Of a stretch of DNA of 64,000 nucleotides, positions 24,901 through 45,436 are shown in pieces (position 1 is the first letter of the stretch; every line of letters starts with the position of its first letter). The notes beneath the pieces are model-generated. The model searched no databases and had not been told where the DNA came from. It saw only the letters and a program-made list of their open reading frames with translations. Origin of the DNA: Alphaproteobacteria bacterium (GTDB taxonomy: Bacteria; Pseudomonadota; Alphaproteobacteria; GCA-2731375); NCBI GenBank assembly GCA_029936195.1, contig JAPYUH010000001.1:10741-74740 (forward strand). The letters run 5' to 3'. The position numbers were made by a program, and so were the translations under genes.

Positions 24901-26519
24901 GTGCCGAACTCCTTGGTACCCTTGATATTCTGGTTGTGGCAGATGGACAGCGCGATGGCGATGGAGGTGCGGGTATCGCGCGGATCGATCATGCCGTCGT
25001 CGGATACGCGGGATGTGGCAAAGAGGCCTTTCGAGCGCTCCTCCGCCCAATGTTCCACCACGGCGGCGCGTTTCCCATCGGCCTCCTCGTCGAATTCGAT
25101 GCTGCGCCGTTCCGAGGCCCTGCGCTGTACGATGGACATCACGCCGGCCATCTGTTTCGGCCCCATGACGGCGATCTTGGCGGTGGGCCAGATGAAGGTG
25201 AAGCGCGTGCCATAGGCCCGCCCGCTCATGCCGTAATTGCCGGCGCCATAGGATGCCCCGACGATGATGGAGATGTGCGGCACGGTGGAGTTGGCCACCG
25301 CGTTGATCATTTTCGAGCCGTTCTTGGTAATGCCGCCCTGCTCGAAATCCGTGCCGACGATGTAGCCGGTGATGTTGTGCAGAAACAGCAGGGGCACGTC
25401 GATCTGATTACATAGCTGGATAAACTGCGCCGCCTTTTCCGAAGATTCCGACATCAGCGGCCCATTGTTGGCGACAATACCCATGGGATAGCCATGCACC
25501 GAGGCCCAGCCGGTGACCAGCGTGGGGCCGTACAGCGGCTTGAACTCCTCAAAGCGGGAGCCGTCCACGACCCGGGCGATGACGTCGCGGATATCAAAGG
25601 GCACGCGCAGGTCTTCGTTGACGATACCCAGCAGCTCTTCTTCGTCGAACAGCGGTGCATCGTTGGGCAGGCTGGGGCCGGGGCCCTGTTTGCGCCAGTT
25701 CAGGTGCGAAACCACTTCGCGGCAAATGCGGATGCCGTCGATCTCGTCCTCCGCCAGGTAATCCCCCAGGCCGGAGGTGCGGGTATGCATCTCGGCCCCG
25801 CCCAGGCTTTCCTCGTCCGCGTCTTCGCCCGTGGCCATTTTCACCAGGGGCGGGCCGCCCAAAAAGACCTTGGACTGTTTTTTGATGAAGATGTTGTAGT
25901 CGCTCATGCCCGGCTGATAGGCCCCGCCGGCGGTGGAGGCGCCGAACACCACGGAAATGGTCGGGATGCGCATTTTCGACAATTCGGTGATCTCGTAAAA
26001 CAACCGTCCGGATTCGGCGAAATGGCCGCCTTCCCGCCGGATCGCCGCCTCCGGATCGCCGCCGTCTTCGCCCCGAAGATCAGCGCCGGCGGATTCGACG
26101 AATTGCACATAGGGCAGGCGGTTCACCCGGGCGATTTCCAGGCCCCGCATCAGCTTCTTGGCGTTGAACTGGTTAAAGGCACCGGCCCGGACCGAGGGGT
26201 CATGGCCCAGGATCAGGCATTCCGTGCCCTCGATTACACCCAGGCCAACAACGAAGCCAGAGCCGACGTTGAAGTTGGAGCGCCAGGCCGCCAGCGGGCT
26301 GATTTCCATGAACGGGCTGTCGCGGTCCAGCACCAGGGCAATACGCTCCCGGATCGGCATCTTGTCACGGGCGGCCAGGCGGGCCATGGCCTCTTCGCCG
26401 CCGCCCTGGGCGACCTCTTCGTGCAGCTCGTCCAAAATGGTGAGCATTTCCAGCATCTTGTCGCGGTTGTCCCGGTATTCGTCCGAGCGCACGTCAAGGG
26501 TCGAGTCCAAAATGGGCAT
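24888..26519 (-). CDS. Acyl-CoA carboxylase carboxyltransferase (beta) subunit
   Basis: About 540-aa carboxyl-transferase typical of MCCase/GCCase beta subunits. Overlaps the alpha-subunit start. Confidence 0.85.
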   Translation of the reverse strand: MPILDSTLDVRSDEYRDNRDKMLEMLTILDELHEEVAQGGGEEAMARLAARDKMPIRERIALVLDRDSPFMEISPLAAWRSNFNVGSGFVVGLGVIEGTECLILGHDPSVRAGAFNQFNAKKLMRGLEIARVNRLPYVQFVESAGADLRGEDGGDPEAAIRREGGHFAESGRLFYEITELSKMRIPTISVVFGASTAGGAYQPGMSDYNIFIKKQSKVFLGGPPLVKMATGEDADEESLGGAEMHTRTSGLGDYLAEDEIDGIRICREVVSHLNWRKQGPGPSLPNDAPLFDEEELLGIVNEDLRVPFDIRDVIARVVDGSRFEEFKPLYGPTLVTGWASVHGYPMGIVANNGPLMSESSEKAAQFIQLCNQIDVPLLFLHNITGYIVGTDFEQGGITKNGSKMINAVANSTVPHISIIVGASYGAGNYGMSGRAYGTRFTFIWPTAKIAVMGPKQMAGVMSIVQRRASERRSIEFDEEADGKRAAVVEHWAEERSKGLFATSRVSDDGMIDPRDTRTSIAIALSICHNQNIKGTKEFGTWRM

Positions 26520-26550
26520 GAAGATACTCCAGAACTATGAACTGATTAAG

Positions 26551-27636
26551 TCAGCGGCTGAACGCGTCGCCGTCCCGCCAGGGAGACAGCTGGCCGGCGT
26601 AAACTTCCGGCCCCTTGCGGAAATGCGCGGCTTCCTCCAGGGTTTCGACGAACGGCATGTTGGCGGGGTAGAGCCTGTCGCCCCTGGGCCGGGCGCCGGA
26701 TTTCGAGACGTGACCCCACAGGGGATGGCCGACAACTTCCTCGGCGATGGCGGCGGCCTCGATCAATTTGTCCAGATCATAGCCGGTTTCGATGCCCATT
26801 TCGTGACACAGATTGACGAAATCCTCGGTCGGCACGTGACCCGCCGCCCGGCCATTGCCGCAATAGGGGCAACCGCCCATGCCGCCGATGGAGGTGTCAA
26901 ATTCACGCACGCCCAGTTGCAGGGCTTCATAATAGCTGGTCAGGGTGGAGCCGCGGCTGTCATGCAGGTGCATGTGAAAATCGGTGATCTCGGGATATTT
27001 GTCCTTGATCGCCGTCAAGGTCTCGCGCACCTCGTGGGGCATATTCCAGCCCATGGCGTCCAGGAATGACAATCTGTTCACTTTGATCCCGGCGCCGTGC
27101 CATTTCCCAATCATCAGGTCGAGCAATTCCATGCGCTGGGCCAGAGTGAATGGTCCTTCAAAGTTGGAGCCGAAGGGATTGCCCAGGCCCACGGCGCCGA
27201 ATTCGGCGTCCGCCTCCTTGGCGGCGGCGACGGCGGCATCCAGCCCGGCGATCTGTTCGGCCTGGGTGCGATTGTAGTTGCGCCGCGCGAAGGTGTCGCA
27301 CAGTTCCACGTTGGTGCCGAATTTCCGCCCCCGCACATCGATTTTTGGATAGTACTGATCGGCCCGCTCGAAACCGCGCTTGTTGAAGATTGCGGCGGTG
27401 TACTTGATGCCCGGCTTGGGTACGAAACGCTCGGCAATCTCGTCAATGCAGGCCATCGACGGCGTCCATTTGGGTGAGGCGAAGGAGCCGATGGAGATAA
27501 CCTTGGCGCCGGTCTCGCCCAAGGCGTCCAGCAGGCGCAGCTTTTCATCCACGGAAATATCGGCGCTTTCGATCTGCAGACCTTCGCGCATGGTGTCGTC
27601 GGTGATCATCACGGATTTCGGCAGCATGGACATCAT
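26551..27636 (-). CDS. HMGL-like (pyruvate carboxyltransferase-domain) lyase, hydroxymethylglutaryl-CoA lyase family; unusually long C-terminus
   Basis: N-terminal DDTMREGLQIE motif resembles the HMGL RDGLQ motif. A TIM-barrel metal-binding H..H pattern is present. At 361 aa it is longer than canonical HMG-CoA lyase. Confidence 0.65.
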   Translation of the reverse strand: MMSMLPKSVMITDDTMREGLQIESADISVDEKLRLLDALGETGAKVISIGSFASPKWTPSMACIDEIAERFVPKPGIKYTAAIFNKRGFERADQYYPKIDVRGRKFGTNVELCDTFARRNYNRTQAEQIAGLDAAVAAAKEADAEFGAVGLGNPFGSNFEGPFTLAQRMELLDLMIGKWHGAGIKVNRLSFLDAMGWNMPHEVRETLTAIKDKYPEITDFHMHLHDSRGSTLTSYYEALQLGVREFDTSIGGMGGCPYCGNGRAAGHVPTEDFVNLCHEMGIETGYDLDKLIEAAAIAEEVVGHPLWGHVSKSGARPRGDRLYPANMPFVETLEEAAHFRKGPEVYAGQLSPWRDGDAFSR

Positions 27637-27685: not shown

Positions 27686-29188
27686 TTATTCAAGGTAGTC
27701 CGCCACGGCCTGGCATTGCGCGGGACCGAGGTGCAGGCCGCATTTGCTGCGCCGCCACAAAATGTCCTCCGCCGTCACCGCCCATTCGTTGGCCACCATA
27801 TAGTCGATTTCCCGCGCCGTCAGGCCGGCTCCGAAGTCATAACCCAGATCGGCGGCGGTTCGGGCCTTGCCAAGGATTTCCTTGGCCAAGGTGCCGTGCC
27901 GCGCTACCAATTGCCGGATCAGGTTGGCGGAGATATTCGGATAGTCCGCGGGTAGGTCGGACAAGTCGGACAGGCCGCCTTCGCCACCTGGCAAGGGTGA
28001 CGTGGCCGTCCAGTTCGGACTCAAATTGGGAAAATATGCGCTAAGGCGATCCATCGCGGCTTCCGCCAGACGACGATATGTGGTGATTTTGCCGCCGTAT
28101 ATGGAGAGTAAGGGCGCGCCGCCGCCATCCAATTCCAGAACATAATCTCGTGTGACCGCCGAAGGGTCTTCATCACCATCACCGAACAGGGGTCGGACGC
28201 CGGCGAAAGACCAGCAGACCTGTTCGGGCATGACGCGGCGGTCAAAATAGGCGTTCACCGCGTGACACAGATATTCGATTTCCGCCGTGGAAATTTGCAC
28301 CGTGCCCGGGTCGCCATCGAAGGGGACGTCGGTGGTTCCGATCAGGGAATAGGCGTCCTGGTAAGGCATGACGAATATCACCCTGCCGTCGGTGTGTTGC
28401 AGAATATAAGCATGCGCGCCGCCGAACAGCCGCGGGACGATAATGTGGCTGCCCTTGATCAGGACCGTCCGTCCCTTATGGCTTGATCGGGAGATGACCC
28501 CGAGGCGCGGCAGCACCTCTTCCACCCAGGGTCCGGCGGCATTGACCAGCACCTTGGCCTGAATTTCAATTCCCCGGCCATTGCCGTCAAGCAAGCTGGC
28601 ATGCCAGATGCCATTCTCCCATCGGGCGGAAACCAGCTCCGTGCGGGTCATGATGCGGGCGCCGCGATGGGCCGCATCCAGAGCATTCAGCACCACTAGG
28701 CGGGCATCGTCGACCCAGCAGTCGTAATAGGCAAACCCCTTGCGCATGTGGCCGCGCAGCGGTTCGCCAACGGCCTCCCGGCGCAGGTTCAGGGACGAGG
28801 AATTGGGCAGCGAGGGATGCGGGCCCAGATGGTCGTAAATGAACAGGCCCAGGCGCACCATCCAGGCCGGCCGGATGGTGTTGACCAGGGGCAGGACAAA
28901 GCGCAACGGCCTGACCAGATGCGGCGCGATGTGGAGCAGGACTTCACGTTCCGCCAAGGCTTCGCGCACCAGGCGGAATTCGAAATACTCCAGATAACGC
29001 AAGCCGCCGTGGATCAGCTTGCTGCTGGCCGAGGACGTGGCGCCCGCCAGATCGCCCCTTTCACACAAGGCGACGCGCAGACCCCGCCCGGCGGCGTCCC
29101 TGGCCATGCCGGCGCCGTTGATGCCGCCGCCGACGATCAGCAGGTCATGCAGCAGGTCCTTCGGCGGGTCGGGGATCTGGGTTGCCAT
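27686..29188 (-). CDS. FAD-dependent glycerol-3-phosphate dehydrogenase-like oxidoreductase (GlpD family)
   Basis: DLLIVGGGINGAGMARDAAGRGL followed by SSASSKLIHGGLRYLE. ATG at 29188 is preferred to the upstream TTG (29266). Confidence 0.8.
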   Translation of the reverse strand: MATQIPDPPKDLLHDLLIVGGGINGAGMARDAAGRGLRVALCERGDLAGATSSASSKLIHGGLRYLEYFEFRLVREALAEREVLLHIAPHLVRPLRFVLPLVNTIRPAWMVRLGLFIYDHLGPHPSLPNSSSLNLRREAVGEPLRGHMRKGFAYYDCWVDDARLVVLNALDAAHRGARIMTRTELVSARWENGIWHASLLDGNGRGIEIQAKVLVNAAGPWVEEVLPRLGVISRSSHKGRTVLIKGSHIIVPRLFGGAHAYILQHTDGRVIFVMPYQDAYSLIGTTDVPFDGDPGTVQISTAEIEYLCHAVNAYFDRRVMPEQVCWSFAGVRPLFGDGDEDPSAVTRDYVLELDGGGAPLLSIYGGKITTYRRLAEAAMDRLSAYFPNLSPNWTATSPLPGGEGGLSDLSDLPADYPNISANLIRQLVARHGTLAKEILGKARTAADLGYDFGAGLTAREIDYMVANEWAVTAEDILWRRSKCGLHLGPAQCQAVADYLE

Positions 29189-29314: not shown

Positions 29315-29737
29315 TTGGAACCCGAATTGCTACGGCCCCTGCCGAAACCCATGACCCCCGAAGCCAAACCATATTGGGATGGTCTGCGGGAAGGAAAATT
29401 GATGTTGCCTGAATGCAACGATTGCGGCAAAGCGTTCTTTTATCCGCGCATCGCCTGCCCAAATTGCCATTCCCGCAACGTCGGCTGGGTCCAGGCCAGC
29501 GGCAAGGGCAAGCTGTATTCCTTTCAGATCGCCTACCGTGCCCTGAACCCGGCCTTCAAGATCCCGCCGCCTTATGTGTTGGCCATGGTCGAGTTGGAGG
29601 AGGGCCCGCGCCTGATGTCAAACCTGATTAATGTCGAGGCCGACCCGGATGTGATCAAGTGCGACATGGCGGTCGAGGTCGTGTTCGAAAAACAGACCGA
29701 CGAGGTCACCATCCCCCTGTTTCAGCCCGCATCGTGA
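29315..29737 (+). CDS. Zn-ribbon/OB-fold protein (DUF35 family), partner of SCP-x-type thiolases
   Basis: CxxC...CxxC rubredoxin-like zinc ribbon (CNDCG...CPNCHS) followed by an OB fold. Confidence 0.75.
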   Translation: MEPELLRPLPKPMTPEAKPYWDGLREGKLMLPECNDCGKAFFYPRIACPNCHSRNVGWVQASGKGKLYSFQIAYRALNPAFKIPPPYVLAMVELEEGPRLMSNLINVEADPDVIKCDMAVEVVFEKQTDEVTIPLFQPAS

Positions 29738-29785
29738 AACGCGTGGCCCGAACCAACGTGACAATTGAATTTATGGAAGCGTAGA

Positions 29786-30931
29786 ATGAAAGACTTATCC
29801 AACTCCGTCGCCATTGTGGGCGTCGATGAATCCGATGAAATCGGCAAGTTGCCGGACGTCAGCCTGACCAGCCTGCATCTGCAGGCGGTCCACAATGCCG
29901 TGGCCGACGCCGGTCTGAAAATTTCCGATATTGATGGCGTCTTCACGGCCGGGCAGCATTCCCCGGCCATGTTGGGCGAGGCCCTGGGCATTACCCCGCG
30001 TTATGTGGACGGCACCTCCGTGGGCGGTTGCTCTTTTATCATGATGGTCGGCCACGCCGTGGCGGCGCTGCATCATGGGCTGTGTGACGTGGCGGTGATC
30101 TCGCACGGTGAAAGCGGTCGGTCGGGCACCGGCGTCACCCGTGCCCGCGACACCTCGTTGAGCGGGCAATATGAAATGCCCTATGGCTTTGGCGGCGCGC
30201 CGACATACTTCGGCATGATCACCAACCGGCATATGCATGAATACGGCACCACGTTGGAAGATTGGGCCCGGGTCGCCGTCTCCACCCGCGCATGGGCTGG
30301 CTTGAACCCCAAGGCCATGTTCCGCGATCCCATCACGGTCGAGGACGTGCTGAATTCACCGAAACTGTTCTATCCCTTCAATTTGCTGAACATCTGCCTG
30401 GTCACCGACGCGGGCGGCGCCGTTGTTTTGACCCGGGCCGAACGGGCCAAGGACTGCGCCAAAAAGCCCGTCTATGTGCGTGGCGCGGGCGAGGGCACGG
30501 AGCATACCCTGGTCACCAATATGACAGACATGCCCATGAGCAAGGCAACCGCCATTTCCGGCAACAAGGCGTTCGAGATGGCCGGTGTCACGCACGGCGA
30601 TTTCGATCACATCATGCTGTACGACGCATTTTCCTCCGGCCCGCCGATGATGCTGGAATCCCTTGGCTTTGCCGAGCCCGGTGAAGGTGTGCGGTTCTTC
30701 GACGAGGGCCGCTCGGACCCGGGCGGCTCCCTGCCCATCAACACCAACGGCGGCGGGCTGTCCTACACCCATTCGGGTATGTACGGCATCTTCCCCATTA
30801 TCGAGGCGGTGCGCCAACAGCGCGGCGAATGCGGTGACCGTCAGGTGCCAGGGGTCAAATGCTCGTTGGTCAACGGCATGGGCGGCATGCTCTCGGCGGC
30901 GGGCACCATTGTGCTCTCACACGAGACCTAG
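29786..30931 (+). CDS. Thiolase-like protein (SCP-x/non-specific lipid-transfer thiolase family)
   Basis: Thiolase-fold N-terminus (VAIVGVDESDEIG) and C-terminal active-site region (GGGLSYTHSGMYG...NGMGGM). Adjacent to the DUF35 gene. Confidence 0.8.
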   Translation: MKDLSNSVAIVGVDESDEIGKLPDVSLTSLHLQAVHNAVADAGLKISDIDGVFTAGQHSPAMLGEALGITPRYVDGTSVGGCSFIMMVGHAVAALHHGLCDVAVISHGESGRSGTGVTRARDTSLSGQYEMPYGFGGAPTYFGMITNRHMHEYGTTLEDWARVAVSTRAWAGLNPKAMFRDPITVEDVLNSPKLFYPFNLLNICLVTDAGGAVVLTRAERAKDCAKKPVYVRGAGEGTEHTLVTNMTDMPMSKATAISGNKAFEMAGVTHGDFDHIMLYDAFSSGPPMMLESLGFAEPGEGVRFFDEGRSDPGGSLPINTNGGGLSYTHSGMYGIFPIIEAVRQQRGECGDRQVPGVKCSLVNGMGGMLSAAGTIVLSHET

Positions 30932-30953
30932 GGGAGCGGAGGAGAATCATCTG

Positions 30954-32015
30954 ATGGATTTCGGGGTCAGTTGCGCCAAGATTGACGAAGTCGGCTTTGT
31001 CCGGCATGCGGAAAATCTGGGCTATGACTTTTGCTGGGTAACCGACAGCCAAATGATCCGCTCCAACCCCTGGGCCGTTCTGGCGCTCATTGCGCAGCAG
31101 ACCCAGACCATTCGCATCGGCACCGGCGTCGCCGTGCCGGGCCTGCGCCTGGCGCCGGTGGCGGCGAACGGCATCGCCACCACCGCCCGCCTGGCGCCGG
31201 GGCGCACCTTCATGGGGATCGGCACCGGCAACACGGCTATGCGGACCATGGGGCAGCGGCCGACCACCATCAAGGCCTTCGGCGAATATATTCGTGTCGT
31301 CCGCGCCTTGCTGGATGGCGAGGAGGTCGACTACACCCTGAACGGCGTCACCCAGCCCATTCGATTTCAAAATACCGAACTGCGCTATCTGGATCTGGAT
31401 CACCACATTCCCATCCACGTGGCGGGTTTCGGACCCAAGGCGCAGGCCCTGGCGGGGGAATTGGGCGACGGCCTGATCACCGGCATCCCGCGCGGCGGCG
31501 CCATTCCCTGGGCGCTCGGCAATGTGAAATCCGGCGCCGACCGGGCCGGGCGCGATCTGGATGGTTTTTTCACAACGGCCCTGGTCAACATGTTGCTGTT
31601 GATGCCCGGTGAAACCTTGGAATCTGAACGGGTGGTCGCTGAATGCGGTTCTTCCATCATGGCGAACGTGCATTTCATGGTGGATTGGGTGAAGGAAACG
31701 GGGGGCGATCCGCCGGACTTCATCAAGCCGATCTGGAATGACTACATGGCGTTCCACAACGCCCGCGACGCCGAGACCCAGCATCAAAAACTGCATGAAA
31801 GCCACTACAGCTATCTCGACCCGGAGGAGGCGCGCTTTATCACGCCGGAAGTGATCCGCAATTTCTGCATCGCCGGACAGCCGGAAGAAATCGTTGATCA
31901 GTTGCTGGACCTGGAACGCCAGGGCCTGAACGCCATCAACTTCATCGCGCCCCTGGAGCAGCAATACCGCATGGCCGAGGACTTCGCGGACAAGGTCATA
32001 TCCCGCATGAAATAA
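30954..32015 (+). CDS. LLM-class (luciferase-like) flavin-dependent oxidoreductase
   Basis: Bacterial luciferase-like TIM-barrel signature. ATG at 30954 has a GGAGGAGAA SD. The track's upstream extension is rejected. Confidence 0.8.
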   Translation: MDFGVSCAKIDEVGFVRHAENLGYDFCWVTDSQMIRSNPWAVLALIAQQTQTIRIGTGVAVPGLRLAPVAANGIATTARLAPGRTFMGIGTGNTAMRTMGQRPTTIKAFGEYIRVVRALLDGEEVDYTLNGVTQPIRFQNTELRYLDLDHHIPIHVAGFGPKAQALAGELGDGLITGIPRGGAIPWALGNVKSGADRAGRDLDGFFTTALVNMLLLMPGETLESERVVAECGSSIMANVHFMVDWVKETGGDPPDFIKPIWNDYMAFHNARDAETQHQKLHESHYSYLDPEEARFITPEVIRNFCIAGQPEEIVDQLLDLERQGLNAINFIAPLEQQYRMAEDFADKVISRMK

Positions 32016-32027
32016 GGAGACCGCGCA

Positions 32028-32423
32028 ATGGCATTGACATTGGAAGAGGCCAACCGCATCGCCCAAGGCGCCCTCGCCAAGGCGGCGGCATTGAATATCA
32101 AGATCAATGTCGCGGTCTGCGACGTGGGCGGACGACTGCTGGTTTTCCAGCGCATGGACGGGGCCATGTGGGCCGGGGTTTACGGCAGTCAGGGCAAGGC
32201 CGTCGCCTCCGCGTCTTTTGGACGGCCCAGTGGTGATATGACGGAACGGGCCGGACATCCGACCTTCCGGGCCATCGTGGCCCATTCCGGCGGCGCCATG
32301 ATCATGGGCCAGGGCGCCGTGCCGGTGATCCGCGACGGCGAGGTGCTGGGCGCCTGCGGCGTTGGCGGCGGCACGGGCCAGGAGGACGAGGATTGCGCCC
32401 AGGCGGGCGTTGATCTGCTATAG
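32028..32423 (+). CDS. GlcG/HbpS-like heme-binding protein (DUF336)
   Basis: 131 aa with the DUF336 pattern (AVCDVGGRLL...GGAMIMGQGAVPV...GACGVGGG). Confidence 0.7.
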   Translation: MALTLEEANRIAQGALAKAAALNIKINVAVCDVGGRLLVFQRMDGAMWAGVYGSQGKAVASASFGRPSGDMTERAGHPTFRAIVAHSGGAMIMGQGAVPVIRDGEVLGACGVGGGTGQEDEDCAQAGVDLL

Positions 32424-32435
32424 GGGCGACGGCAT

Positions 32436-33221
32436 ATGGCCATTGTCAAGAATGCCGTCATGGAGCGACTGGGCGCCGGCAAGATCGCGGCCAGTTTTAA
32501 TGTCAGCCGCCTGCGCACCGTGGAAATTCCCCAAATCGCCAAGGCCTGCGGTTTTCATTGGATCTTCATCGATCTAGAGCATTCCACCATGGACCTGGAC
32601 ATGGCCGGCCAAATCTGTGCCGCCGCCTTGCCCACGGCCGTTACGCCCATCGTTCGCGTGCCCGAGGGGGATGTGAACCGGGCCGCCCGCATCCTGGACG
32701 CCGGCGCCCAGGGCGTTATCTTCCCCCATGTGCAAAACGCGGTTGAGGCGCGCGCTTTCACCGCTGCCTGCCGCTTTCCCCCCATCGGTACGCGCTCGCT
32801 GATCTATGGCGGACCGCAGCTTGAATATGAAAACCTGCCCCCCGGCGAGGTCATGGCCGGGATCAACGGCGAAACTCTTGTGGTCATGATGATTGAAACG
32901 CCCGAGGCCGTGGCCAACGCCGCTGAAATTGCGGCCGTGGACGGCGTCGATCTGCTGTTGGTGGGCGGCTCGGACCTGTCGGCGACCATGGGTATTGCCG
33001 GGCAGTTCAGCCATCCCGATTTCCTTGCCGCCATCGACACGGTGATCGCGGCCGCCAAGGGCGCGGGCAAATGGCCTGGTCTGGGCGGGATCTATGACGA
33101 GGCGATCCTGCCGGACTTTGCCGATCGCGGCATGCGCTTTTTCCTGGGCGGGGCGGATATGTCGTTCATCCTGGCGGGCGGCAAATCCCGCGGCGCCTTT
33201 TTCAATGGGTTGTCGGTTTGA
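32436..33221 (+). CDS. HpcH/HpaI-family class II (2-keto-3-deoxy-acid/pyruvate) aldolase
   Basis: Family pattern G..W...IDLEH...R.E (CGFHWIFIDLEHS...VRVPEG), comparable to RhmA/HpaI. Confidence 0.8.
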   Translation: MAIVKNAVMERLGAGKIAASFNVSRLRTVEIPQIAKACGFHWIFIDLEHSTMDLDMAGQICAAALPTAVTPIVRVPEGDVNRAARILDAGAQGVIFPHVQNAVEARAFTAACRFPPIGTRSLIYGGPQLEYENLPPGEVMAGINGETLVVMMIETPEAVANAAEIAAVDGVDLLLVGGSDLSATMGIAGQFSHPDFLAAIDTVIAAAKGAGKWPGLGGIYDEAILPDFADRGMRFFLGGADMSFILAGGKSRGAFFNGLSV

Positions 33222-33328
33222 CGTCAAACCCATTCCCAAACAGCCTGGTTTTGGCTACCATTTAGATCCTACCTCAATCTGGCCGCTTGGATTATCGCGG
33301 CCCCCGCCACGCATCAACAGGACCGATC

Positions 33329-35608
33329 ATGCCCGCAATTCTGGATGGGATTACCATCCTCGACCTCAGTACAGGCCCCGCCGCCGCCCTTGCCACCATG
33401 TTGTTGGGCGATCAAGGCGCGCGCGTCATCCGCCTTGTCGAGCCCGACGCGCCTGTTTTTCGGGACGGCGGCTTTGTCATTTGGGATCGCGGCAAGGAAC
33501 GCATGGCACTGGATATTGAGCAAGACAATGGCCAATTCCATGCCTTGGTCGCGGGCGCCGATGTTTTGGTGGAGGATTTCGCGCCAAGCTCGGCCCGCCA
33601 GGAATTGGTCAAAGCTGAAACGTTGGCCCGGATCAATTCCCGCTTGACCGCCTGTTCCCTGACCGCCTATGGCAAGCGCGGCGCGCTGAAGGATGAACCG
33701 CCGATCGAGGATCTGGTGCTGGCCCGCATGGGTGTTTTGGGCGGCATGCCGGGCTTCCGCCCGCCGCCCGTGCATGTGGTCCATCCCCTGCCCACCGTGG
33801 GCGCCGCCATACTGGCCTGCCTGGGCATTGCCGCCGCCTTGCTGGCCCGCGAAGGGACCGGGCGCGGACGCACGGTGGAGACTTCGTTGATGGCCGGCGC
33901 CTTGTTGTATCACCCCAAGGTCATTGGCGAGAATTTGGACGCGCATGTCTTTCAGACCCACCCATCTGGCAGCGCGCCTTTTTACAGTGTCTATGAATGC
34001 GGCGACGGCAACTGGGTGCAATTGGGTTGCGTGCATGTGCGCTTCATCGCCATCGCCGCCAACCTCATGGGCATCGGCGATCTGGTGGCCGAGCCGCGCT
34101 TCAATGGCGGCGGCGGAGGCATGACGGCCGGGGACGAGGCGGAATTGCGCGCCGTTCTTACCCGCGTGGTTGCCACGAAGCCCCTGGCGGAATGGGCCGA
34201 GGCGTTCGAGGCGGCGGATGTGCCCTTCGCGCCCGTGCGCCCGACCGAGGACGGCATGACCGATCCTCAGGTCATCCATAACGACATGGTGGTCACCCTG
34301 GATGATCCCGAACGTGGGCCCGTGACGCAAATGGGCGTGCCGCTTGGGTTTAGCCAAACGCCCGGCGCCGTTCAGGGGCCGAGGGCGGGCGGGAATTCCG
34401 AGATTACCCTTGATGCCATTCAGGCGGGCACTGCCGTCGCGGGCGCGATGGATCCGCCGCCCCTGGCCGGCATCCGCATTCTGGAAATCACCAACCTGAT
34501 CGCCGGCCCCACGGGCGGGCGCCTGCTGGCCGATCTGGGCGCCGATGTGATCAAGCTGGAACCGCACACGGGCGATCTGTCCCGGCCCATCGGGCGGTCA
34601 TATTTCTATAATCTGAATTTCAACAAACGCTCGGTCTCCGTCGATACCAGCACGGACAAGGGGCGGGAAGTGGTGCAGCGCATCGCCGCCCGGTCGGACG
34701 CCCTGATGGCGAACCTGCGTCCCGGCGCCACGGCCCGCATGGGTATCGGGCCGGAGAACCATCCCCAACTGATCGAAACCCACCTGACCGGCTATGGCCC
34801 CACCGGGCCTTACGCCAAACGCCCCGGCATTGACCCCCTGGCCCAGGCCCTCATGGGCATGTCCCGGGCCCAGGGCGGCTTGGACAATCCACCCGTGTTC
34901 CCGGCCCAACTGGCGCCCACCGATTTCACCACGGGCGCCATGGGTGCCTTTGGCACCGTATTGGCAATCTATGCCCGGACCCGTCACGGCATTGTGCAAC
35001 GGGTTGACAGCAACCTGCTGAATGGCGCGGTGCTGCTGTCGTCGGCCTGGTTTTCGGCCTATGAAGGGCGGCCCGTCAGGCCCTTGGCGGACACGGACCA
35101 ATATGGCCTGAACCCCTACCATCGGCTCTATCGTCTGAATGACGGCTGGATCTATGTCACCGCCGGGAATGCGGAACACCGCAATGCCATCTGTCAGGTC
35201 TCGGGCGTTGCCGCCGGGGGCAGCGCGGAAGGCCGCCACCCCAACCTATCCCCGCTGGCCCAATCCCTCGCCGAGGGGTTCGCCGGCCGGGGATTGGCCG
35301 ATACCCTTGCCGCGTTGCGAAAGGCCGGCGTGCCGGTGGCCGAGGCGCAAAAGGGTGGCAGCGAGCTGTTCCTCGACCACCCGCATACCCAGGAGAACGA
35401 TATGGTGGCGACCCTGAGCCACCCCATTGCGGGCCGGTTGCGGGTGGCCCATCGCTACATTCAATTCGGCAATACCGAACCGGCCAATCACCTTCCCACG
35501 CCGCTGTTGGGCGAGCAGACCGACGAGGCCCTGCGCGAGGCCGGATATAACGAAGATGAGATCCGCGCCCTGCATGATGACGGCATTGTCCTGACCGAAA
35601 CGGCGTAA
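33329..35608 (+). CDS. Tandem-fused family III CoA-transferase (two CaiB/BaiF domains in one 759-aa polypeptide)
   Basis: The N-terminal half (ILDLSTGPAAALATMLLGDQGARVIRLVEP) and the C-terminal half (ILEITNLIAGPTGGRLLADLGADVIKLEPH) each carry the family III CoA-transferase N-terminal signature. ATG at 33329. Confidence 0.8.
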   Translation: MPAILDGITILDLSTGPAAALATMLLGDQGARVIRLVEPDAPVFRDGGFVIWDRGKERMALDIEQDNGQFHALVAGADVLVEDFAPSSARQELVKAETLARINSRLTACSLTAYGKRGALKDEPPIEDLVLARMGVLGGMPGFRPPPVHVVHPLPTVGAAILACLGIAAALLAREGTGRGRTVETSLMAGALLYHPKVIGENLDAHVFQTHPSGSAPFYSVYECGDGNWVQLGCVHVRFIAIAANLMGIGDLVAEPRFNGGGGGMTAGDEAELRAVLTRVVATKPLAEWAEAFEAADVPFAPVRPTEDGMTDPQVIHNDMVVTLDDPERGPVTQMGVPLGFSQTPGAVQGPRAGGNSEITLDAIQAGTAVAGAMDPPPLAGIRILEITNLIAGPTGGRLLADLGADVIKLEPHTGDLSRPIGRSYFYNLNFNKRSVSVDTSTDKGREVVQRIAARSDALMANLRPGATARMGIGPENHPQLIETHLTGYGPTGPYAKRPGIDPLAQALMGMSRAQGGLDNPPVFPAQLAPTDFTTGAMGAFGTVLAIYARTRHGIVQRVDSNLLNGAVLLSSAWFSAYEGRPVRPLADTDQYGLNPYHRLYRLNDGWIYVTAGNAEHRNAICQVSGVAAGGSAEGRHPNLSPLAQSLAEGFAGRGLADTLAALRKAGVPVAEAQKGGSELFLDHPHTQENDMVATLSHPIAGRLRVAHRYIQFGNTEPANHLPTPLLGEQTDEALREAGYNEDEIRALHDDGIVLTETA

Positions 35609-35767: not shown

Positions 35768-36541
35768 ATGTCCGAAAGAACAAAACGCAGGCTAACGACT
35801 ATCGTGGCCGCAGACATCGCCGGTTTTTCACGCTTGGTTGGGAACGACGAAGAAGCCACTCTTGCGGCCCAACGTGGCCATCGTACCAAACTAATTGAAC
35901 CACTGCTTGCCGAACACCAAGGCCGGATCGCCAATACAGCCGATGATAGCTTCCTGTTTGAATTTCAGAGCGCGGTAGAGGCGGTGCGTTGTTCGATTGC
36001 CGTGCAGGATGGTATGGCCGAGAGAAACCTTGGCGTCGCCTCTGATCGACGCATAGAGTACCGCATTGGCGTCAACGTTGGTGACGTGGTGCCCGATGGC
36101 GATGACCTATTGGGCGACGGCGTCAACATTGCGGCGCGTCTCGAAAGCCTTTGTTCGCCAGGCGGCATTATTCTGTCCGATGACGCCTATAGGCAGGTGC
36201 GTGACCGCCTTGAGATTACTTGGGAGGATGGCGGCGAGCACAAGGTCAAAAACATCTTACGGCCAGTGCAGGTTTGGCGGTGGTCAACAGTAAATTCACA
36301 AAAAACCGCCGTAGTAGAAATCACGGATCATGATGCGCGACCGCTACACGATAAGCCTTCTATTGCCGTCCTGCCATTCGACAACATGTCCGGCGACCCG
36401 GAGCAAGAATATTTCTCAGACGGTATTGCCGAAGATATTATCACTGACCTTTCCAGATTTTCCATGGCAAGTAAGCCTGCATCAATTTCGAGTTGCCGAA
36501 TGTCCCAAATGGGTCGAGAGCAGCTAGTAGGAAATCACTGA
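35768..36541 (+). CDS. Class III adenylate/guanylate cyclase catalytic-domain protein, C-terminally truncated relative to its family (possible gene remnant)
   Basis: CHD cyclase domain (TIVAADIAGFSRL...GDGVNIAARLES). The ORF stops 18 aa after the conserved linker motif (SIAVLPFDNMSGDPEQEYFSDGIAEDIITDLSRF) that in homologs precedes a long TPR region. GC3 is lower than in neighbouring genes. Confidence 0.6.
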   Translation: MSERTKRRLTTIVAADIAGFSRLVGNDEEATLAAQRGHRTKLIEPLLAEHQGRIANTADDSFLFEFQSAVEAVRCSIAVQDGMAERNLGVASDRRIEYRIGVNVGDVVPDGDDLLGDGVNIAARLESLCSPGGIILSDDAYRQVRDRLEITWEDGGEHKVKNILRPVQVWRWSTVNSQKTAVVEITDHDARPLHDKPSIAVLPFDNMSGDPEQEYFSDGIAEDIITDLSRFSMASKPASISSCRMSQMGREQLVGNH

Positions 36542-40069: not shown

Positions 40070-40092
40070 CGCGGCGGGCTTGGAAATTGGGC

Positions 40093-41034
40093 ATGGAAAT
40101 TCTACTGCAAGGATTGCGCGCGGCGGCCGAACCGACCCGCCTTCGATTGCTGGCACTATGCGCCCATGGCGAACTGACGGTGACGGAACTGACCCAGATC
40201 CTGGGCCAAAGTCAGCCCCGCGTGTCACGGCATTTGAAGCTGCTGTGCGAGGCGGGGCTGTTGGAACGGCATAGGGAGGGGACCTGGGCCTACTACCGGC
40301 TGGCCGATAGCTCCGATGGCGCCCATTTGGCCCGCACATTGGTGGATCTGGTGCCCAATTGCGACAATAGCCTGGCCCGCGACCTGAACCGTCTGGCCGC
40401 CATCAAACAGACCAGGGCCGACGCGGCGGCGGCCTACTTTCGCGCCAATGCCGAACAATGGGATGAAATCCGCTCTCTCTATGTGCCCGAGAGAGAGGTT
40501 GAGGCGGCACTGCAAAGCGCTATTGGCGAGCGTCCCATTGATGATTTCCTCGATATCGGTACCGGCACGGGGCGTATTCTCGAGGTTTTCGCACCCCGCA
40601 TCAAACGCGGCACTGGGATCGATCTGTCCCACGAGATGCTGCAAGTGGCCCGGGCCAAATTGGAACAGGCCGGCCATCGCCATTGCCAGGTGCGTCACGG
40701 CGATATGTATAATTTGCAACTGCCGGCCGGTGAATTCGACGTGGTGGTGCTGCATCAGGTGCTGCATTACGCCGAGGTGCCCAGCGCGGTTATTGCCGAG
40801 GCGGCGCAGACACTGCGCCCCGGCGGGCGTCTTCTGCTGGTGGATTTCGCGACCCACGACCAGGCTTTCCTGCGCGAGGAACATAAACACCGCTGGCTTG
40901 GCTTCGCGCCGGACCAGATCAACGACTGGTGCGGGGCGGCGGATATGCGGGCCGCGGCGCCTATTGAATTGGCCGGCAGTCAGCTGACCGTGCTGATCTG
41001 GCAGGCCGTACGGGACGGGGAGGGGGTATCGTGA
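40093..41034 (+). CDS. sahR: ArsR-family HTH plus SAM-dependent methyltransferase-like domain regulator (SahR-type methionine-cycle regulator)
   Basis: N-terminal ArsR wHTH (LRLLALCAHGELTVTELTQILGQSQPRVSRHLKLLCEAGLL) fused to a class I MTase fold (DIGTGTGRILEVFAP). Located immediately upstream of metF-metH, as described for SahR. Confidence 0.7.
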   Translation: MEILLQGLRAAAEPTRLRLLALCAHGELTVTELTQILGQSQPRVSRHLKLLCEAGLLERHREGTWAYYRLADSSDGAHLARTLVDLVPNCDNSLARDLNRLAAIKQTRADAAAAYFRANAEQWDEIRSLYVPEREVEAALQSAIGERPIDDFLDIGTGTGRILEVFAPRIKRGTGIDLSHEMLQVARAKLEQAGHRHCQVRHGDMYNLQLPAGEFDVVVLHQVLHYAEVPSAVIAEAAQTLRPGGRLLLVDFATHDQAFLREEHKHRWLGFAPDQINDWCGAADMRAAAPIELAGSQLTVLIWQAVRDGEGVS

Positions 41035-41951
41035 CGACCAATTTGACGGATACACGGCTGATGTCGTCCAATGCCATGGGGCCGCTATCGGTTTCATTCG
41101 AGTTTTTTCCCCCAAAAACCCAGAAAATGGCGGAAAATTTGTGGGCCGCCATGGAGCGTTTGCGCCCCCTCCGGCCAAACTTCGTTTCCGTCACCTATGG
41201 GGCGGCCGGCAGCACCCGCCAACGCACCCATGACACGGTGACCCGTATCCAGAACGAGGGCGGGCTGCCCTGCGCCGCCCATTTGACCTGCGTCGGGGCT
41301 GCCCGGGAAGAGGTCAACGAAGTGGCGCGGAGTTATTGGCAGGCTGGCGTGCGCCACCTGGTGGCCCTGCGCGGCGATCCGCCCGAAGGCGAAGAGAACT
41401 TCCAGAACCATCCCGACGGCTACCACAATGCCGCCGAACTGGTGGCCGGGCTTCGCACGGTCGCGGATTTTGAAATATCCGTCGCCGCCTACCCCGAGAT
41501 GCACCCCAACAGCCCCTCCAGCCAGGCCGATCTGGATAATCTGAAGCGCAAGATCGACGCCGGCGCCAATCGCGCCATCACGCAATTCTTCTTTGATGCC
41601 GATACCTATATGCGTTTCCTCGAACGCGCCAGGGCAGCGGGCATCTGGGTGCCCATCGTGCCGGGCATCCTGCCGGTCAGCAACTTCGTGCGGGCCGCCC
41701 GCATCGCCAAGGCGTGTGGTGCCGCCATGCCGGCCTGGATGGCGCATGTGTTCGAGGGCCTGGAAGAGGATGCGGAAACCCGGCGCATGGTGGCGGTCAC
41801 CGTCGCGGCCGAGCAGTGCCGCAAGCTGCAGTCGGCCGGGGTAACTGATTTTCATTTTTATACTTTAAACCGGGCCGATCTGACCTACGCGATCTGCCAC
41901 ATCATGGGCCTGCGTCCGCAAACGGCGGCGGTGGAAGGAACGCCCGCATGA
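41031..41951 (+). CDS. metF: 5,10-methylenetetrahydrofolate reductase
   Basis: MetF signature (FEFFPPKT...VSVTYGAGGSTR). GTG start overlaps the sahR stop. An alternative ATG lies at 41061. Confidence 0.9.
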   Translation: MTTNLTDTRLMSSNAMGPLSVSFEFFPPKTQKMAENLWAAMERLRPLRPNFVSVTYGAAGSTRQRTHDTVTRIQNEGGLPCAAHLTCVGAAREEVNEVARSYWQAGVRHLVALRGDPPEGEENFQNHPDGYHNAAELVAGLRTVADFEISVAAYPEMHPNSPSSQADLDNLKRKIDAGANRAITQFFFDADTYMRFLERARAAGIWVPIVPGILPVSNFVRAARIAKACGAAMPAWMAHVFEGLEEDAETRRMVAVTVAAEQCRKLQSAGVTDFHFYTLNRADLTYAICHIMGLRPQTAAVEGTPA

Positions 41952-44900
41952 CCAATATTCTGGAGCATCTGCGCCAAGAGGTGCTGTTGTGTGATGGTGC
42001 CATGGGCAGCCGCCTGCAACAGGCTGATCTGGATATCGAGGTCGATTATTGGGGTCAGGAAAACTGCTCCGAAATCCTTAATCTCAGCCGTCCTGATATT
42101 ATCCGCGAGATCCAGCAGGGCTTTGTCGCCGCCGGTTCGGACATTCTGTTGACCAACACTTTTGGCGGTTCGTCCATCACCTTGGCGGAATTCGACCTCC
42201 AGGACCGGACCCACGAAATCAACAAACGGGCCGCCGAACTGGCTCGCGAGGCCTTGGGTGAATTCGGCCGTGACGGTATCCAGCGTTATGTCCTGGGCGA
42301 TATCGGGCCCGGCACCAAGCTGCCCAGCCTGGGCCAGGTCGACTATGACGAATTGGAGGCCGCCCTGGCGGCGCAATCCGCCGGTCTGCTGGCGGGTGGC
42401 GTTGACGGCATCATGATCGAGACGGTGCAGGATATCCTGCAGCTCAAGGCGGCGGTCAACGGCGCCCGCATGGCCATGGCCGAGGCCGGCCGCGAAGTGC
42501 CCATATTGACCCAAGTGACCGTGGAAACCACGGGTACCCTGTTGGTCGGCACCGATATCGCCGGCGCCGCCACGGTCATCCATGCCCTGGGCGTGGAGGC
42601 CATGGGCCTGAATTGCGCCACCGGCCCCCGGGAAATGGCCGAACATGTACGCTGGCTGTCGGAACAATGGCCCGGCATTATCTCGATCCAGCCCAACGCC
42701 GGGCTGCCCGAACTGGTGGACGGCCAGCCCAGCTATCCGCTTTCGCCGGAAGAACTCGCCGATTGGGCCAAACGCTTCGTGGTCGAAGACGGGGTAAATC
42801 TGGTGGGCGGTTGTTGCGGTACGGTAACGACCCACATCAAGGCCTTGAACGACATGCTTGAAGGTTTGAGTGAAGGCCGCCGTCCGAAGCCCAAGTCCCG
42901 GCAGTCCGAATGGGTGCCGGGCATTGCGTCACTTTATGGCCAGATCCCCTATCGCCAGGAAAACGCCTATCTCTCCATCGGCGAGCGCTGCAACGCCAAC
43001 GGCAGCAGAAAATTTCGCGAGTTGCAGGAGGCCGAGGACTGGGACGGCTGTATTGCCATGGGCCGGGAGCAGGCCAAGGAAGGCTCCCACGCCCTGGATA
43101 TTTGCACCGCTTTCGTGGGCCGGAACGAACTGGTGGATATGAGCGCCATGGTCACCCGCATGCGCGGCGCCGTGCATGCGCCCCTGGTCATCGATTCAAC
43201 CGAGTTTCCCGTCTTGGAAGGCGCCCTGAAGCTGTATGGCGGCAAGGCTCTGATTAACTCCATCAATTTCGAGGATGGCGAGGAACCGGCCGCCAAGCGC
43301 CTTGGGCTGGCGCGGAAGTTCGGCTGCGGCGTCATTGCCTTGACCATTGATGAAGAGGGCATGGCCAAAACCGCGGACGAAAAGGTCAAGCTGGCCCACC
43401 GCTTGCACGATTATGCGGTTAATCAGCATGGCATGGCGTCCTCTGATCTGTTGTTTGACCCCCTGACCTTCACAATTTGCACCGGCAATCCCGACGACCG
43501 CCTGCTGGGACTGGAAACCCTGAACGCGATTGAGCGGATCGCCAAGGAACTGCCCGATTGTCAGATTGTTCTGGGCCTTTCAAATATTTCCTTCGGTCTG
43601 AAACCCGCCGCCCGCCATGTTCTGAACTCTGTCTATCTGCAACATGCGCTGGACCGGGGCATGACCGGTGCCATCGTGCACCTGTCGAAAATCCTGCCCC
43701 TGCATTCCATTCCGGAAGAGGAGGTCAAGGCGGCCGAGGATCTGATCTATGACCGCCGGGCGGAAGGCTATGATCCCCTGCATGCATTCATCGCCCTGTT
43801 CGAGGACCGCACGACGGCAAAGGTAGAAAAGGAGCGCCCGGCCGAGGTCGGAGAGCGCCTGAAACTGCGCATCATCGATGGCGACCGTCCCGGTTTGGAG
43901 GAGGACCTGGACGAGGCCATGGAACAGCACGCGCCGTTGGAGATCGTCAACGACATACTGTTGGGCGGCATGAAGGTGGTGGGCGAATTGTTCGGATCGG
44001 GCCAGATGCAGCTGCCGTTCGTGTTGCAATCGGCCGAGACAATGAAGGCCTCCGTGGCTTATCTGGAACCCCATATGGAACGCAGCGCGGACAGCGAAAA
44101 GGGCACCATCGTGTTGGCCACGGTGCGCGGCGATGTTCATGATATCGGCAAGAATCTGGTTGACATTATCCTGACCAACAACGGCTACCGGGTGATTAAT
44201 CTCGGCATCAAGCAGCCCATCGGCGCCATCATGGATGCGGTCAAGGAACATGACGCCGATGCCGTGGGCATGTCGGGACTTTTGGTCAAGTCGACCACGA
44301 TCATGCGGGAAAATTTGGAGGAGATGTCCCGCCAGCAGATCAATCTGCCGGTCATGCTGGGCGGTGCCGCACTGACCCGCGGCTTTGTCGAGGAGGATTG
44401 CGCCAAGGCATACGCCACCGCGTCCGGCCGGGTGGCCTATGCCCGCGACGCCTTCGACGGCCTGGATATCATGGGCAAGGTGGTGGACGGCGTCTTTGAC
44501 GACTATATCGCCGAGCGTGACAAAAAACGCGAGGGCCGGCCCACCAACCAACGGCGTAAACTGGGCCAGCCAACCCTGCTGCCCCGGCCCCTGGATTTGG
44601 AGGAAGTCCGCACCCGGCGCGAGGAACTGCACAAGGGCGTCGCGGTGCCCGAGGCGCCGTTCCTGGGCCATCGCATCATCGAAGAGGTGGGGATCAAGGC
44701 GCTGCTGCCCTATTTGAATGAGCGCATGCTGTATCAATTCCATTGGGGCTATCGCAAGCGGGGCCGGGCCCTGGCGGACTACATGAAATGGGCCCGGGGC
44801 GAGATCAAGCCGATCCTGCTGGATCTGGTGGAACGCTGCGAGGCCGAGAATATTCTGCAACCGCAAGCCGTCTATGGCTATTTCCCCGCCGCCAGTGATG

Positions 44901-45436
44901 GCGACGATCTGGTCCTGTTCGGCCCCGGCGGTGGTGATGAAATTGCCCGCTTTTCGCTGCCCCGCCAGGATCGGGCGGGGGGGCTGTGCATCGCCGATTT
45001 TTTCCGCGAGGCAGACACGGGCGAGCGGGACATCATCGCCTTGCAGGCGGTTACCGTGGGCCAGCACGCCTCGGAAGTGGCGCGGCAGTGGTTCGACGAA
45101 GATCGCTATCAGGACTATCTGTATCTCCACGGCCTGGGCGTGGAAATGGCCGAGGCCATGGCCGAATACGTGCACAAACGGGTGCGCGGCGAACTTGGTT
45201 TCGGTGATCTCGATGCCCGCGACAATGATGCCCTTTTGAACCAGGGTTATCGCGGCTCCCGCTATTCCTTCGGCTATCCCGCCTGCCCGACCATGTCCGA
45301 TCAGCGCAAGATTCTCGATCTGTTGCAGGCCGGCCGCATCGGCCTGGTGATGGGCGACGAGGATCAATTGCACCCGGAACAATCAACCTCGGCCATCGTC
45401 GTGCATCATCCCCAGGCGAAGTATTTCAGCGTTTAA
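41948..45436 (+). CDS. metH: Cobalamin-dependent methionine synthase
   Basis: 1162 aa comprising the Hcy S-methyltransferase domain, pterin-binding domain, B12-binding domain (DVHDIGKN) and AdoMet activation domain. ATGA overlap with metF. Confidence 0.95.
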   Translation: MTNILEHLRQEVLLCDGAMGSRLQQADLDIEVDYWGQENCSEILNLSRPDIIREIQQGFVAAGSDILLTNTFGGSSITLAEFDLQDRTHEINKRAAELAREALGEFGRDGIQRYVLGDIGPGTKLPSLGQVDYDELEAALAAQSAGLLAGGVDGIMIETVQDILQLKAAVNGARMAMAEAGREVPILTQVTVETTGTLLVGTDIAGAATVIHALGVEAMGLNCATGPREMAEHVRWLSEQWPGIISIQPNAGLPELVDGQPSYPLSPEELADWAKRFVVEDGVNLVGGCCGTVTTHIKALNDMLEGLSEGRRPKPKSRQSEWVPGIASLYGQIPYRQENAYLSIGERCNANGSRKFRELQEAEDWDGCIAMGREQAKEGSHALDICTAFVGRNELVDMSAMVTRMRGAVHAPLVIDSTEFPVLEGALKLYGGKALINSINFEDGEEPAAKRLGLARKFGCGVIALTIDEEGMAKTADEKVKLAHRLHDYAVNQHGMASSDLLFDPLTFTICTGNPDDRLLGLETLNAIERIAKELPDCQIVLGLSNISFGLKPAARHVLNSVYLQHALDRGMTGAIVHLSKILPLHSIPEEEVKAAEDLIYDRRAEGYDPLHAFIALFEDRTTAKVEKERPAEVGERLKLRIIDGDRPGLEEDLDEAMEQHAPLEIVNDILLGGMKVVGELFGSGQMQLPFVLQSAETMKASVAYLEPHMERSADSEKGTIVLATVRGDVHDIGKNLVDIILTNNGYRVINLGIKQPIGAIMDAVKEHDADAVGMSGLLVKSTTIMRENLEEMSRQQINLPVMLGGAALTRGFVEEDCAKAYATASGRVAYARDAFDGLDIMGKVVDGVFDDYIAERDKKREGRPTNQRRKLGQPTLLPRPLDLEEVRTRREELHKGVAVPEAPFLGHRIIEEVGIKALLPYLNERMLYQFHWGYRKRGRALADYMKWARGEIKPILLDLVERCEAENILQPQAVYGYFPAASDGDDLVLFGPGGGDEIARFSLPRQDRAGGLCIADFFREADTGERDIIALQAVTVGQHASEVARQWFDEDRYQDYLYLHGLGVEMAEAMAEYVHKRVRGELGFGDLDARDNDALLNQGYRGSRYSFGYPACPTMSDQRKILDLLQAGRIGLVMGDEDQLHPEQSTSAIVVHHPQAKYFSV

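Follow-up and report, generated by a model that had tools for sequence, protein, structure and literature searches.

We analyzed a 64,000-nucleotide stretch of an alphaproteobacterial metagenome-assembled genome (MAG), which we will call the window, and in particular a gene on its + strand that encodes two family III (type III) CoA-transferase domains in a single chain. This gene is the last of a co-directional cluster that starts with a DUF35 gene at position 29315 (Table 1). Other neighbors include a cyclase and an ABC exporter. The open reading frame of the fused gene spans 33287..35608. Translation from the ATG at 33329, which has an AGGA motif 7 nucleotides upstream, gives a protein of 759 amino acids, and the stop codon is at 35606-35608. 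A database protein (P0001) has the same sequence and the same length. The fused gene's GC content and base composition are uniform with those of the adjacent genes.

Table 1. Coordinates of the fused gene and its parts, of the cluster upstream, and of the split relatives (positions are in the window, or in the locus that is named).
Feature	Position	Strand	Basis or description
Whole gene, 759-aa two-domain family III (type III) CoA-transferase	33329..35608, stop included	+	Two PF02515 stretches, codon check
N-terminal half, residues 1-340	33329..34348	+	Family III fold complete, catalytic Asp absent; probably a non-catalytic partner
Codon ACC, Thr156, the N-half counterpart of the catalytic Asp	33794..33796	+	Gap-free alignment to the YfdE Asp
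Inter-domain linker, residues 341-377	34349..34459	+	Mostly coil, pLDDT 76-89
C-terminal half, residues 378-759	34460..35605	+	Canonical, catalytically equipped family III domain
Codon GAT, Asp532, predicted catalytic nucleophile	34922..34924	+	Aligned to the YfdE catalytic Asp, invariant
DUF35 (zf-ChsH2/OB)	29315-29737	+	Pfam/NCBIfam
SCP-x-type thiolase-like protein	29786-30931	+	Pfam/NCBIfam
Luciferase-like (LLM) oxidoreductase	30954-32015	+	Domain annotation
HbpS/GlcG-like protein	32028-32423	+	Domain annotation
HpaI/GarL-type aldolase-like protein (HpcH gene)	32436-33221	+	Domain annotation
Split pair in L055	4633-7094		Asp-less N-like gene (392 aa), then Asp-bearing C-like gene (428 aa)
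Split pair in L056	5001-7324		Asp-less N-like gene (387 aa), then Asp-bearing C-like gene (386 aa)

A preliminary description of this gene had claimed that the 759-residue chain contains two family III domains, each with two signature motifs. Both claims are borne out. The Pfam family PF02515 (CoA_transf_3, or CaiB/BaiF/Frc) matches the protein twice, with a whole-protein E-value of 7.8e-145. The score of 483 bits, as compared to the gathering score of 23.3, places the protein in family III. The family III models of NCBIfam match each half separately, and each half is similar to family III enzymes with solved structures. All four motifs are present: ILDLSTGPAAA at residue 10, VIRLVEP at residue 33, ILEITNLIAGP at residue 384, and VIKLEPH at residue 407.

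We compared the protein to two sets of homologs. The close set is from a search of 5.8 billion clustered proteins, which listed 120 matches at 63-100% identity. Most of these (117/120) are full length, with 740-830 amino acids, and they come from independent ENA, JGI, NCBI, and Logan assemblies. The diverse set comprises 127 fused representatives that we obtained by searching exhaustively, with phmmer, 1.84 billion sequences that represent clusters at 50% identity.

The two halves are similar in fold, and they differ in their catalytic equipment. The C-terminal half covers positions 1-366 of the 366 positions in the PF02515 profile, its best solved relatives are YfdE and human SUGCT, and it conserves the canonical motifs AGP, GAxVIKxE, NxRPG, and GYGxxGPY. 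The N-terminal half matches alpha-methylacyl-CoA racemase (MCR), Frc, SUGCT, and YfdE with E-values of 1e-22 to 1e-25, and its best solved match is MCR. The preliminary description considered both domains to be complete. As far as the fold is concerned, this is correct, but the N-half lacks the catalytic aspartate and is incomplete in that sense. The linker between the halves is the least conserved segment, with a column conservation of 0.34 (as compared to 0.45 for the N-half and 0.47 for the C-half), and the stretch from position 335 to position 380 is anywhere from 28 to 95 residues long in fused homologs. The linker sits where the N-like subunits of split relatives (described below) have a canonical C-terminal tail, LGxHT...LG.

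The preliminary description also raised the question of which half carries the catalytic aspartate, to be answered by aligning each half to Frc/CaiB. The answer is the C-half only. In HMMER alignments with YfdE from E. coli (PDB 4hl6), the segment LAPTDFTTG of the C-half places D532 on the catalytic aspartate (SLADLCGG, chain residue 193), while the segment HPLPTVGAA of the N-half places Thr156 on it, without gaps. When the two halves are compared to each other by BLASTP, they are 26% identical (E = 8e-17), and the loop of the N-half has no acidic residue.

This asymmetry is conserved. D532 is present in all 117 of the close homologs and in all 127 of the diverse ones. At position 156, the close homologs have threonine (56), serine (55), asparagine (5), or proline (1), and none has an acidic residue. 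The diverse homologs usually have serine (76), glycine (13), threonine (9), or alanine (8) at this position, along with scattered other residues; three have glutamate and one has aspartate. In other words, of the 126 diverse homologs with a residue at this position, 122 have a non-acidic one. The four proteins with an acidic residue in the N-half (Asp in P0222; Glu in P0125, P0208, and P0228) retain the aspartate of the C-half as well, and, judging from their sequences, they could be fused enzymes with two active sites.

In the AlphaFold2 model, D532 is in the first turn of the helix at 530-553, and Thr156 is in the first turn of the helix at 154-177. In Mct, the catalytic aspartate is described as lying at the start of the last Rossmann helix (PMC9813914). 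D532 of the C-half occupies this place, while the N-half has Thr156 instead of an aspartate. The residues that are found at position 156 (serine, threonine, glycine, alanine, and asparagine) are ones that helices favor in their first turn, suggesting that this position is structural.

We also compared the N-half to MCR from M. tuberculosis. In a gapped alignment, the equivalent of His126 is Ile126 and the equivalent of Asp156 is Pro153. Since both of the catalytic residues of MCR are missing, a racemase-type N-half was ruled out.

The loop that surrounds position 156 (residues 144-158, nucleotides 33758-33802) has the pattern R-P-x-P-V-H-x-V-H-P-L-P-[TS]-V-G and is almost invariant among family members with at least 63% identity. 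Within the close family, His149 and His152 are kept. In the class at large, these positions have Tyr/Phe and variable residues, so the two histidines are a clade-specific feature of the pseudo-active site.

We modeled all 759 residues with AlphaFold2, using an alignment of 81 sequences. The mean predicted local distance difference test score (pLDDT) was 89.8 and the predicted template modeling score was 0.94. The model has the family III fold, with its Rossmann-type large domain and its small domain, and the two halves are confidently predicted to pack as one compact body. Foldseek searches against the PDB with this model found only single-domain chains of about 355-430 residues (SUGCT, Frc, YfdW, CaiB, BbsEF, Mct, Rv3272, and MCR). 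For chains of SUGCT, Frc, YfdW, CaiB, BbsEF, and Mct, the E-values were 1e-18 to 1e-24 and the template modeling (TM) scores were about 0.71-0.81 when normalized per target. These scores are about 0.8 per target but about 0.44 per query, so each PDB chain covers half of the model.

The deep search also identified two complete stand-alone subunits that are similar to the N-half (P0196 and P0251, about 390 amino acids). These have the LGxHT...LG tail, are 45% identical to the N-half (vs. 30% to the C-half), and have serine at the position of the catalytic aspartate. Just downstream of each of their genes is a second family III gene, and its start codon overlaps the preceding stop codon. The products of the second genes are more similar to the C-half (37-39% identity vs. 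31-33%), and they retain the aspartate. The subunits of these split pairs (L055 and L056 in Table 1) are about 40% identical to each other, which is above the 26% identity between the fused halves. Because the order and the asymmetry of the subunits in the split pairs match those of the fusion, the fused protein can be viewed as a covalent version of a heterodimer of Asp-less and Asp-bearing subunits. These sequence comparisons suggest that the ancestors of the fusion were probably two neighboring genes with coupled translation, the Asp-less one and then the Asp-bearing one. A recent tandem duplication is ruled out, as the halves are only 26% identical.

When we compared the halves of the homologs to each other by BLAST, the best match was always to the same type (126/126 for N and 126/126 for C). 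Since the score distributions of the two types overlap, we consider a single origin of the asymmetry to be likely rather than proven. The preliminary description had proposed that the protein mimics a heterodimer as a single chain, and this proposal is supported by the low identity of the halves, by split relatives in the same order, and by the compact body in the AlphaFold model.

The preliminary description implied that such fusions are rare. They are not: the class is very common. The phmmer search found 45,455 matches with E ≤ 1e-3 among the 50%-identity representatives, and 3,087 matches with E ≤ 1e-30. Nearly all of the best 150 representatives are fused proteins of 740-840 amino acids, and their alignments span the full length of the query, with identities of just 30-55%. 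The clusters that contain the diverse representatives have generic names only (“CaiB-like” or “CoA transferase”). Similarly, a database search in 2017 had already turned up 2,401 two-domain proteins (Dong et al. 2018, PMC6006322).

Among the species genomes in GTDB, we found 48 loci with a fused gene, including some in chromosome-level MAGs. The close loci (58-93% identity) are all from uncultured marine MAGs of the Alphaproteobacteria/Rhodospirillaceae. The best match (93%) is from a sample taken at 3000 m, and the closest genomes are from depths of 3000-4000 m. More distant loci are from Binatia, Acidimicrobiia, Dehalococcoidia/SAR202, and Chloroflexia. Using tblastn against plasmids, we also found many fused genes, about 2.2-2.4 kb long, on replicons from cultured organisms: Rhodococcus, Mycobacterium, Massilia, Sphingomonas/Sphingopyxis, and the archaeon Halobellus. 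None of these genes is annotated as dddD, and the annotation is simply “CoA transferase.” The preliminary description had suggested a survey of fused homologs as a check, and with 117 close homologs, the diverse representatives, and 48 loci in GTDB, the fused form is widespread.

We also examined which genes are near the fused gene in its relatives. In 10 distinct related loci (among them L004, L007-L010, L013, L015, L018, and L043), tblastn shows homologs of the DUF35 and thiolase genes upstream of the fused gene, and distant homologs of this pair precede the fused gene in a locus from Acidimicrobiia (L046). Homologs of 77-93% identity retain the whole block, from DUF35 through HbpS to the CoA-transferase. 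In the group with 73-74% identity, only DUF35 and the thiolase precede the fused gene. In the group with 58-59% identity, a different LLM gene lies immediately downstream, in the convergent orientation, and there is an extra single-domain family III gene upstream. In other words, the pairing of this type of CoA-transferase with LLM oxidoreductases recurs, with LLM proteins that are not orthologous. The extra family III gene (in L026-L044) is about 1.4-4.8 kb upstream, and its product is 31-32% identical to the C-half. Other relatives have unrelated neighbors (Amidohydro_2, CMD, an AidB-like dehydrogenase, or Amdase).

Where the cluster is conserved (L004, L007-L011, and L043 as compared to 29315-35608 of the window), the fused CoA-transferases are 77-93% identical, while the DUF35, thiolase, LLM, and HbpS proteins are mostly 88-99% identical. 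The fused CoA-transferase diverges faster than its neighbors.

The HpaI/GarL-type gene, which is just upstream of the fused gene, was found solely in the window (and its copy L001) and in the relative at 93% identity (L007). Relatives with 77-82% identity have the GlcG-like gene right before the CoA-transferase, which suggests that the aldolase gene was inserted into the cluster recently. We considered whether the HpcH protein might be a CitE-type CoA-ester lyase, but this was ruled out, because the protein is HpaI/GarL-like and is confined to the window and its closest relative.

Beyond the DUF35 end of the cluster, and divergent from it, the - strand of the window (22894-27633) encodes an HMG-CoA-lyase-like protein, an acyl-CoA carboxyltransferase, and a biotin carboxylase/BCCP protein (MCCase-alpha-like). 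These genes also adjoin the DUF35-thiolase-LLM cluster in the relatives with 77-93% identity. GlpD (27686-29188 in the window) lies between the two sets of genes in some of the loci only; a neighbor that had been labeled as “DAO” is this GlpD protein. Downstream of the fused gene, at 35768-36517, is a 249-amino-acid protein that consists of the catalytic domain of an adenylate/guanylate cyclase alone (Pfam E = 2e-08). Near the fused gene in other loci, the cyclases have 567-707 amino acids and include CHASE2 or Fer2 sensor domains, and the cyclase in the window may be truncated or minimal. Further downstream (40087-45436) is an ordinary methionine-cycle cluster, which is unrelated to the fused gene. 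It encodes an ArsR/SAM-methyltransferase fusion, MTHFR, and B12-dependent methionine synthase (1162 amino acids).

Overall, we think that the protein is a typical two-domain (tandem) family III CoA-transferase, of a class that is already known, and that it functions as a covalent pseudo-heterodimer with one catalytic half. We give this reading a probability of roughly 80%. Most likely, the two halves pack within one chain like the two subunits of the interlocked dimers of Frc, CaiB, or YfdE. A homodimer would have two active sites; we infer that this protein has just one, at the interface of the large domain of the C-half with the N-half, around D532. By analogy to Frc and Mct, D532 would attack the donor acyl-CoA to form an acyl-aspartyl anhydride, which would be converted to a beta-aspartyl-CoA thioester, and the CoA would then be passed to the acceptor acid. 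The N-half, with Thr156 in place of the aspartate, would be a non-catalytic partner that supplies the second half of the cavity at the dimer interface.

The enzyme probably activates a carboxylic acid, without using ATP, in a deep-ocean alphaproteobacterium, where its gene belongs to a catabolic cluster along with a DUF35/thiolase-like pair, an LLM oxidoreductase of the flavin/F420 type, and a GlcG-like protein. For SAR202 bacteria, it has been proposed that the products of flavin monooxygenases are fed to CoA-transferases, and the gene context here fits with this proposal. The context points to a general role in the CoA-dependent catabolism of an acid and supports no more specific role.

Several observations weigh against parts of this reading. 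No two-domain family III structure was found in the copy of the PDB that we searched (the sequence matches had at most 456 amino acids and the fold matches were single-domain), and instead of a single chain that interlocks with itself, the protein may form a domain-swapped dimer of chains. The N-half is nearly as conserved as the C-half (0.45 vs. 0.47). Together with the clade-invariant loop (R144..P147-V-H149..H152-P-L-P155), this raises the possibility that the N-half has a role beyond scaffolding. As for the chemistry, DddD has a lyase step and PtmU4 transfers sulfur, so plain CoA transfer is an assumption. All seven matches to equivalog models in NCBIfam (which cover Frc, YfdE, SUGCT-like CaiB, mesaconate CoA-transferase, CaiB, and Mct) were far below their cut-offs (the best had 212 bits vs. 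442), so these models assign no substrate. Finally, the gene neighborhood is not conserved beyond about 73% identity, which makes the assignment to a pathway weak.

What else could this gene be? An assembly error or a frameshift might have joined two neighboring genes, and indeed split versions with overlapping stop and start codons exist elsewhere, so that a single indel could in principle mimic a fusion. But a frameshift, which the preliminary description had also considered unlikely, does not account for this gene: an unbroken frame is shared by 117 full-length homologs from assemblies that were made independently, by 48 genome loci (some of them in chromosome-level MAGs from long reads), and by genes of cultured strains. 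Also, the N-half lacks the C-terminal tail of the stand-alone subunits, and a simple frameshift would not remove that tail. We consider an artefact to be exceedingly improbable. It is unlikely, although not to that degree, that both halves are functional, with the N-half having a second activity (racemase-like, lyase, hydrolase, or a regulatory ligand site) around Thr/Ser156, His149, and His152. The N-half's conservation does imply strong purifying selection, the close family shows almost no variation in the loop around position 156, the N-half's best solved match is a racemase, and the two characterized two-domain enzymes, DddD and PtmU4, both go beyond plain transfer. However, the N-half lacks both catalytic residues of MCR, and His149 and His152 are not conserved across the class. 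The residues at position 156 are suited to a helix's first turn, and this again points to a structural role. And conservation is expected even for a pseudo-subunit, since the N-half forms half of the remaining active-site cavity. There is a slim chance that the Asp-less N-half has turned into a second catalytic or ligand-sensing site, in a bifunctional enzyme such as a CoA-transferase with a lyase or hydrolase activity, as in DddD.

The other rivals are the specific functions of DddD and PtmU4, and we distinguished the window's protein from these enzymes by their lengths, domain spans, gene contexts, taxa, and reported grouping. DddD converts dimethylsulfoniopropionate (DMSP) to dimethyl sulfide and 3-hydroxypropionate. 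It is a classic marine enzyme with two CaiB-like domains in tandem, and the window is from a marine alphaproteobacterium. But DddD has about 820-830 amino acids, with its CaiB domains at 1-416 and 439-821 (PMC7174347), while our protein has 759, with an N-half of about 340 residues and a linker of 37. Near the fused gene, there are no genes for a BCCT-type transporter, a LysR regulator, or ddd dehydrogenases. DddD is reported to be an outgroup to the bulk of the two-domain enzymes, and our protein aligns end to end with the bulk. Furthermore, the closest genomes are from 3000-4000 m, where DMSP is considered unlikely (PMC5395668). A DddD-type activity therefore seems very improbable. A PtmU4-type enzyme would convert an acyl-CoA to a thiocarboxylic acid via a sulfur-carrier protein, and PtmU4 also has two domains, with an aspartate in the second one on which its activity depends. 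However, over 90% of the thioacid group is encoded within two genes of a PtmA3-type acyl-CoA synthetase, and there is no AMP-binding gene in the cluster here or in its flanks. The thioacid group has been reported only from Actinobacteria and from Beta- and Gammaproteobacteria, while the window is from an alphaproteobacterial MAG, and the group accounts for just 175 of the 2,401 two-domain proteins. This function, too, is very improbable. In other words, our protein is probably neither a DddD nor a PtmU4, and we return to the reading as a two-domain CoA-transferase with one catalytic half.

What does this add to what was known? Both the fused architecture and the location of the catalytic aspartate had already been described, in a class with thousands of members; the finding is genuine but unremarkable. 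In the two-domain enzymes, the conserved aspartate is in the C-terminal domain, and mutants of PtmU4 at Asp430 lose 125-400-fold of their activity (PMC6006322). The asymmetry was published, and the question of “which half” had an answer in the literature, before our analysis. Its breadth is a modest addition: among 127 fused representatives, the aspartate of the C-half is always present (127/127), and the N-half is rarely acidic (4/127). The split relatives share this asymmetry, and they show clearly how a heterodimer could evolve into a fusion. Some interest also remains in the structure, as the copy of the PDB that we searched has no solved two-domain family III enzyme: one chain would form an interlocked ring by itself, and such a self-threading chain, if this is correct, would be a topology without a solved example in that collection. 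The conserved N-half, including the clade-specific loop with His149 and His152, is of interest as well. If the N-half did prove to have an activity of its own, such a bifunctional enzyme, along with DUF35/thiolase proteins and LLM oxidoreductases, could help to degrade refractory organic acids in the deep sea.

In the full-text literature, we found the name of the class in Dong et al. 2018 (PMC6006322) only, which suggests that the class is known but little studied. DddD was the sole characterized two-domain member before PtmU4 (PMC6006322), and these two are the only members with an established function. The deep-ocean clades with the fused gene beside LLM and DUF35/thiolase genes are candidates for the ATP-free activation of unusual organic acids. 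As compared to the two-domain class as a whole, we see no difference in architecture: our protein has the same tandem domains, a poorly conserved linker, the aspartate in the C-terminal domain, and a length within about 750-830 amino acids. While the class is widespread in Proteobacteria and Actinobacteria, our protein belongs to a deep-ocean sub-clade of the Alphaproteobacteria with its own gene context. PtmU4, from a thioacid cassette of Streptomyces platensis, likewise has two domains, and its activity requires the aspartate of the C-terminal domain (Asp430), but it transfers sulfur to an acyl-CoA and adjoins PtmA3; our gene has no such neighbor and is from another taxon. DddD, from Marinomonas and Endozoicomonas, is also marine and has two CaiB-like family III domains per chain, but it is longer, and its gene is in a DMSP operon along with genes for a transporter and a regulator, neither of which is near our gene.

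The classical family III enzymes (Frc, YfdW, CaiB, YfdE, SUGCT, and Mct) share the fold of each half (TM about 0.8 per chain). D532 is at the same helix start as their catalytic aspartates, and the mechanism is presumed to be the same. They have two identical chains and two active sites, while our protein is one chain with diverged halves and probably one site. In BbsEF (PDB 9fn0/9fol), as in the split pairs, two different family III subunits cooperate as separate polypeptides, while our gene is a single open reading frame without an internal stop. The PDB entry title for BbsEF names a “D178-CoA adduct.” The BbsE and BbsF chains are only distant matches to our protein, with E-values of 1e-17 to 1e-19 by sequence and 23-26% identity in the fold alignment. 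The analogy to a heterodimer rests on the uncharacterized split pairs in L055 and L056: they have serine in the first subunit and aspartate in the second, in the same order as in the fusion, and the tail of the first subunit is replaced in the fusion by the linker.

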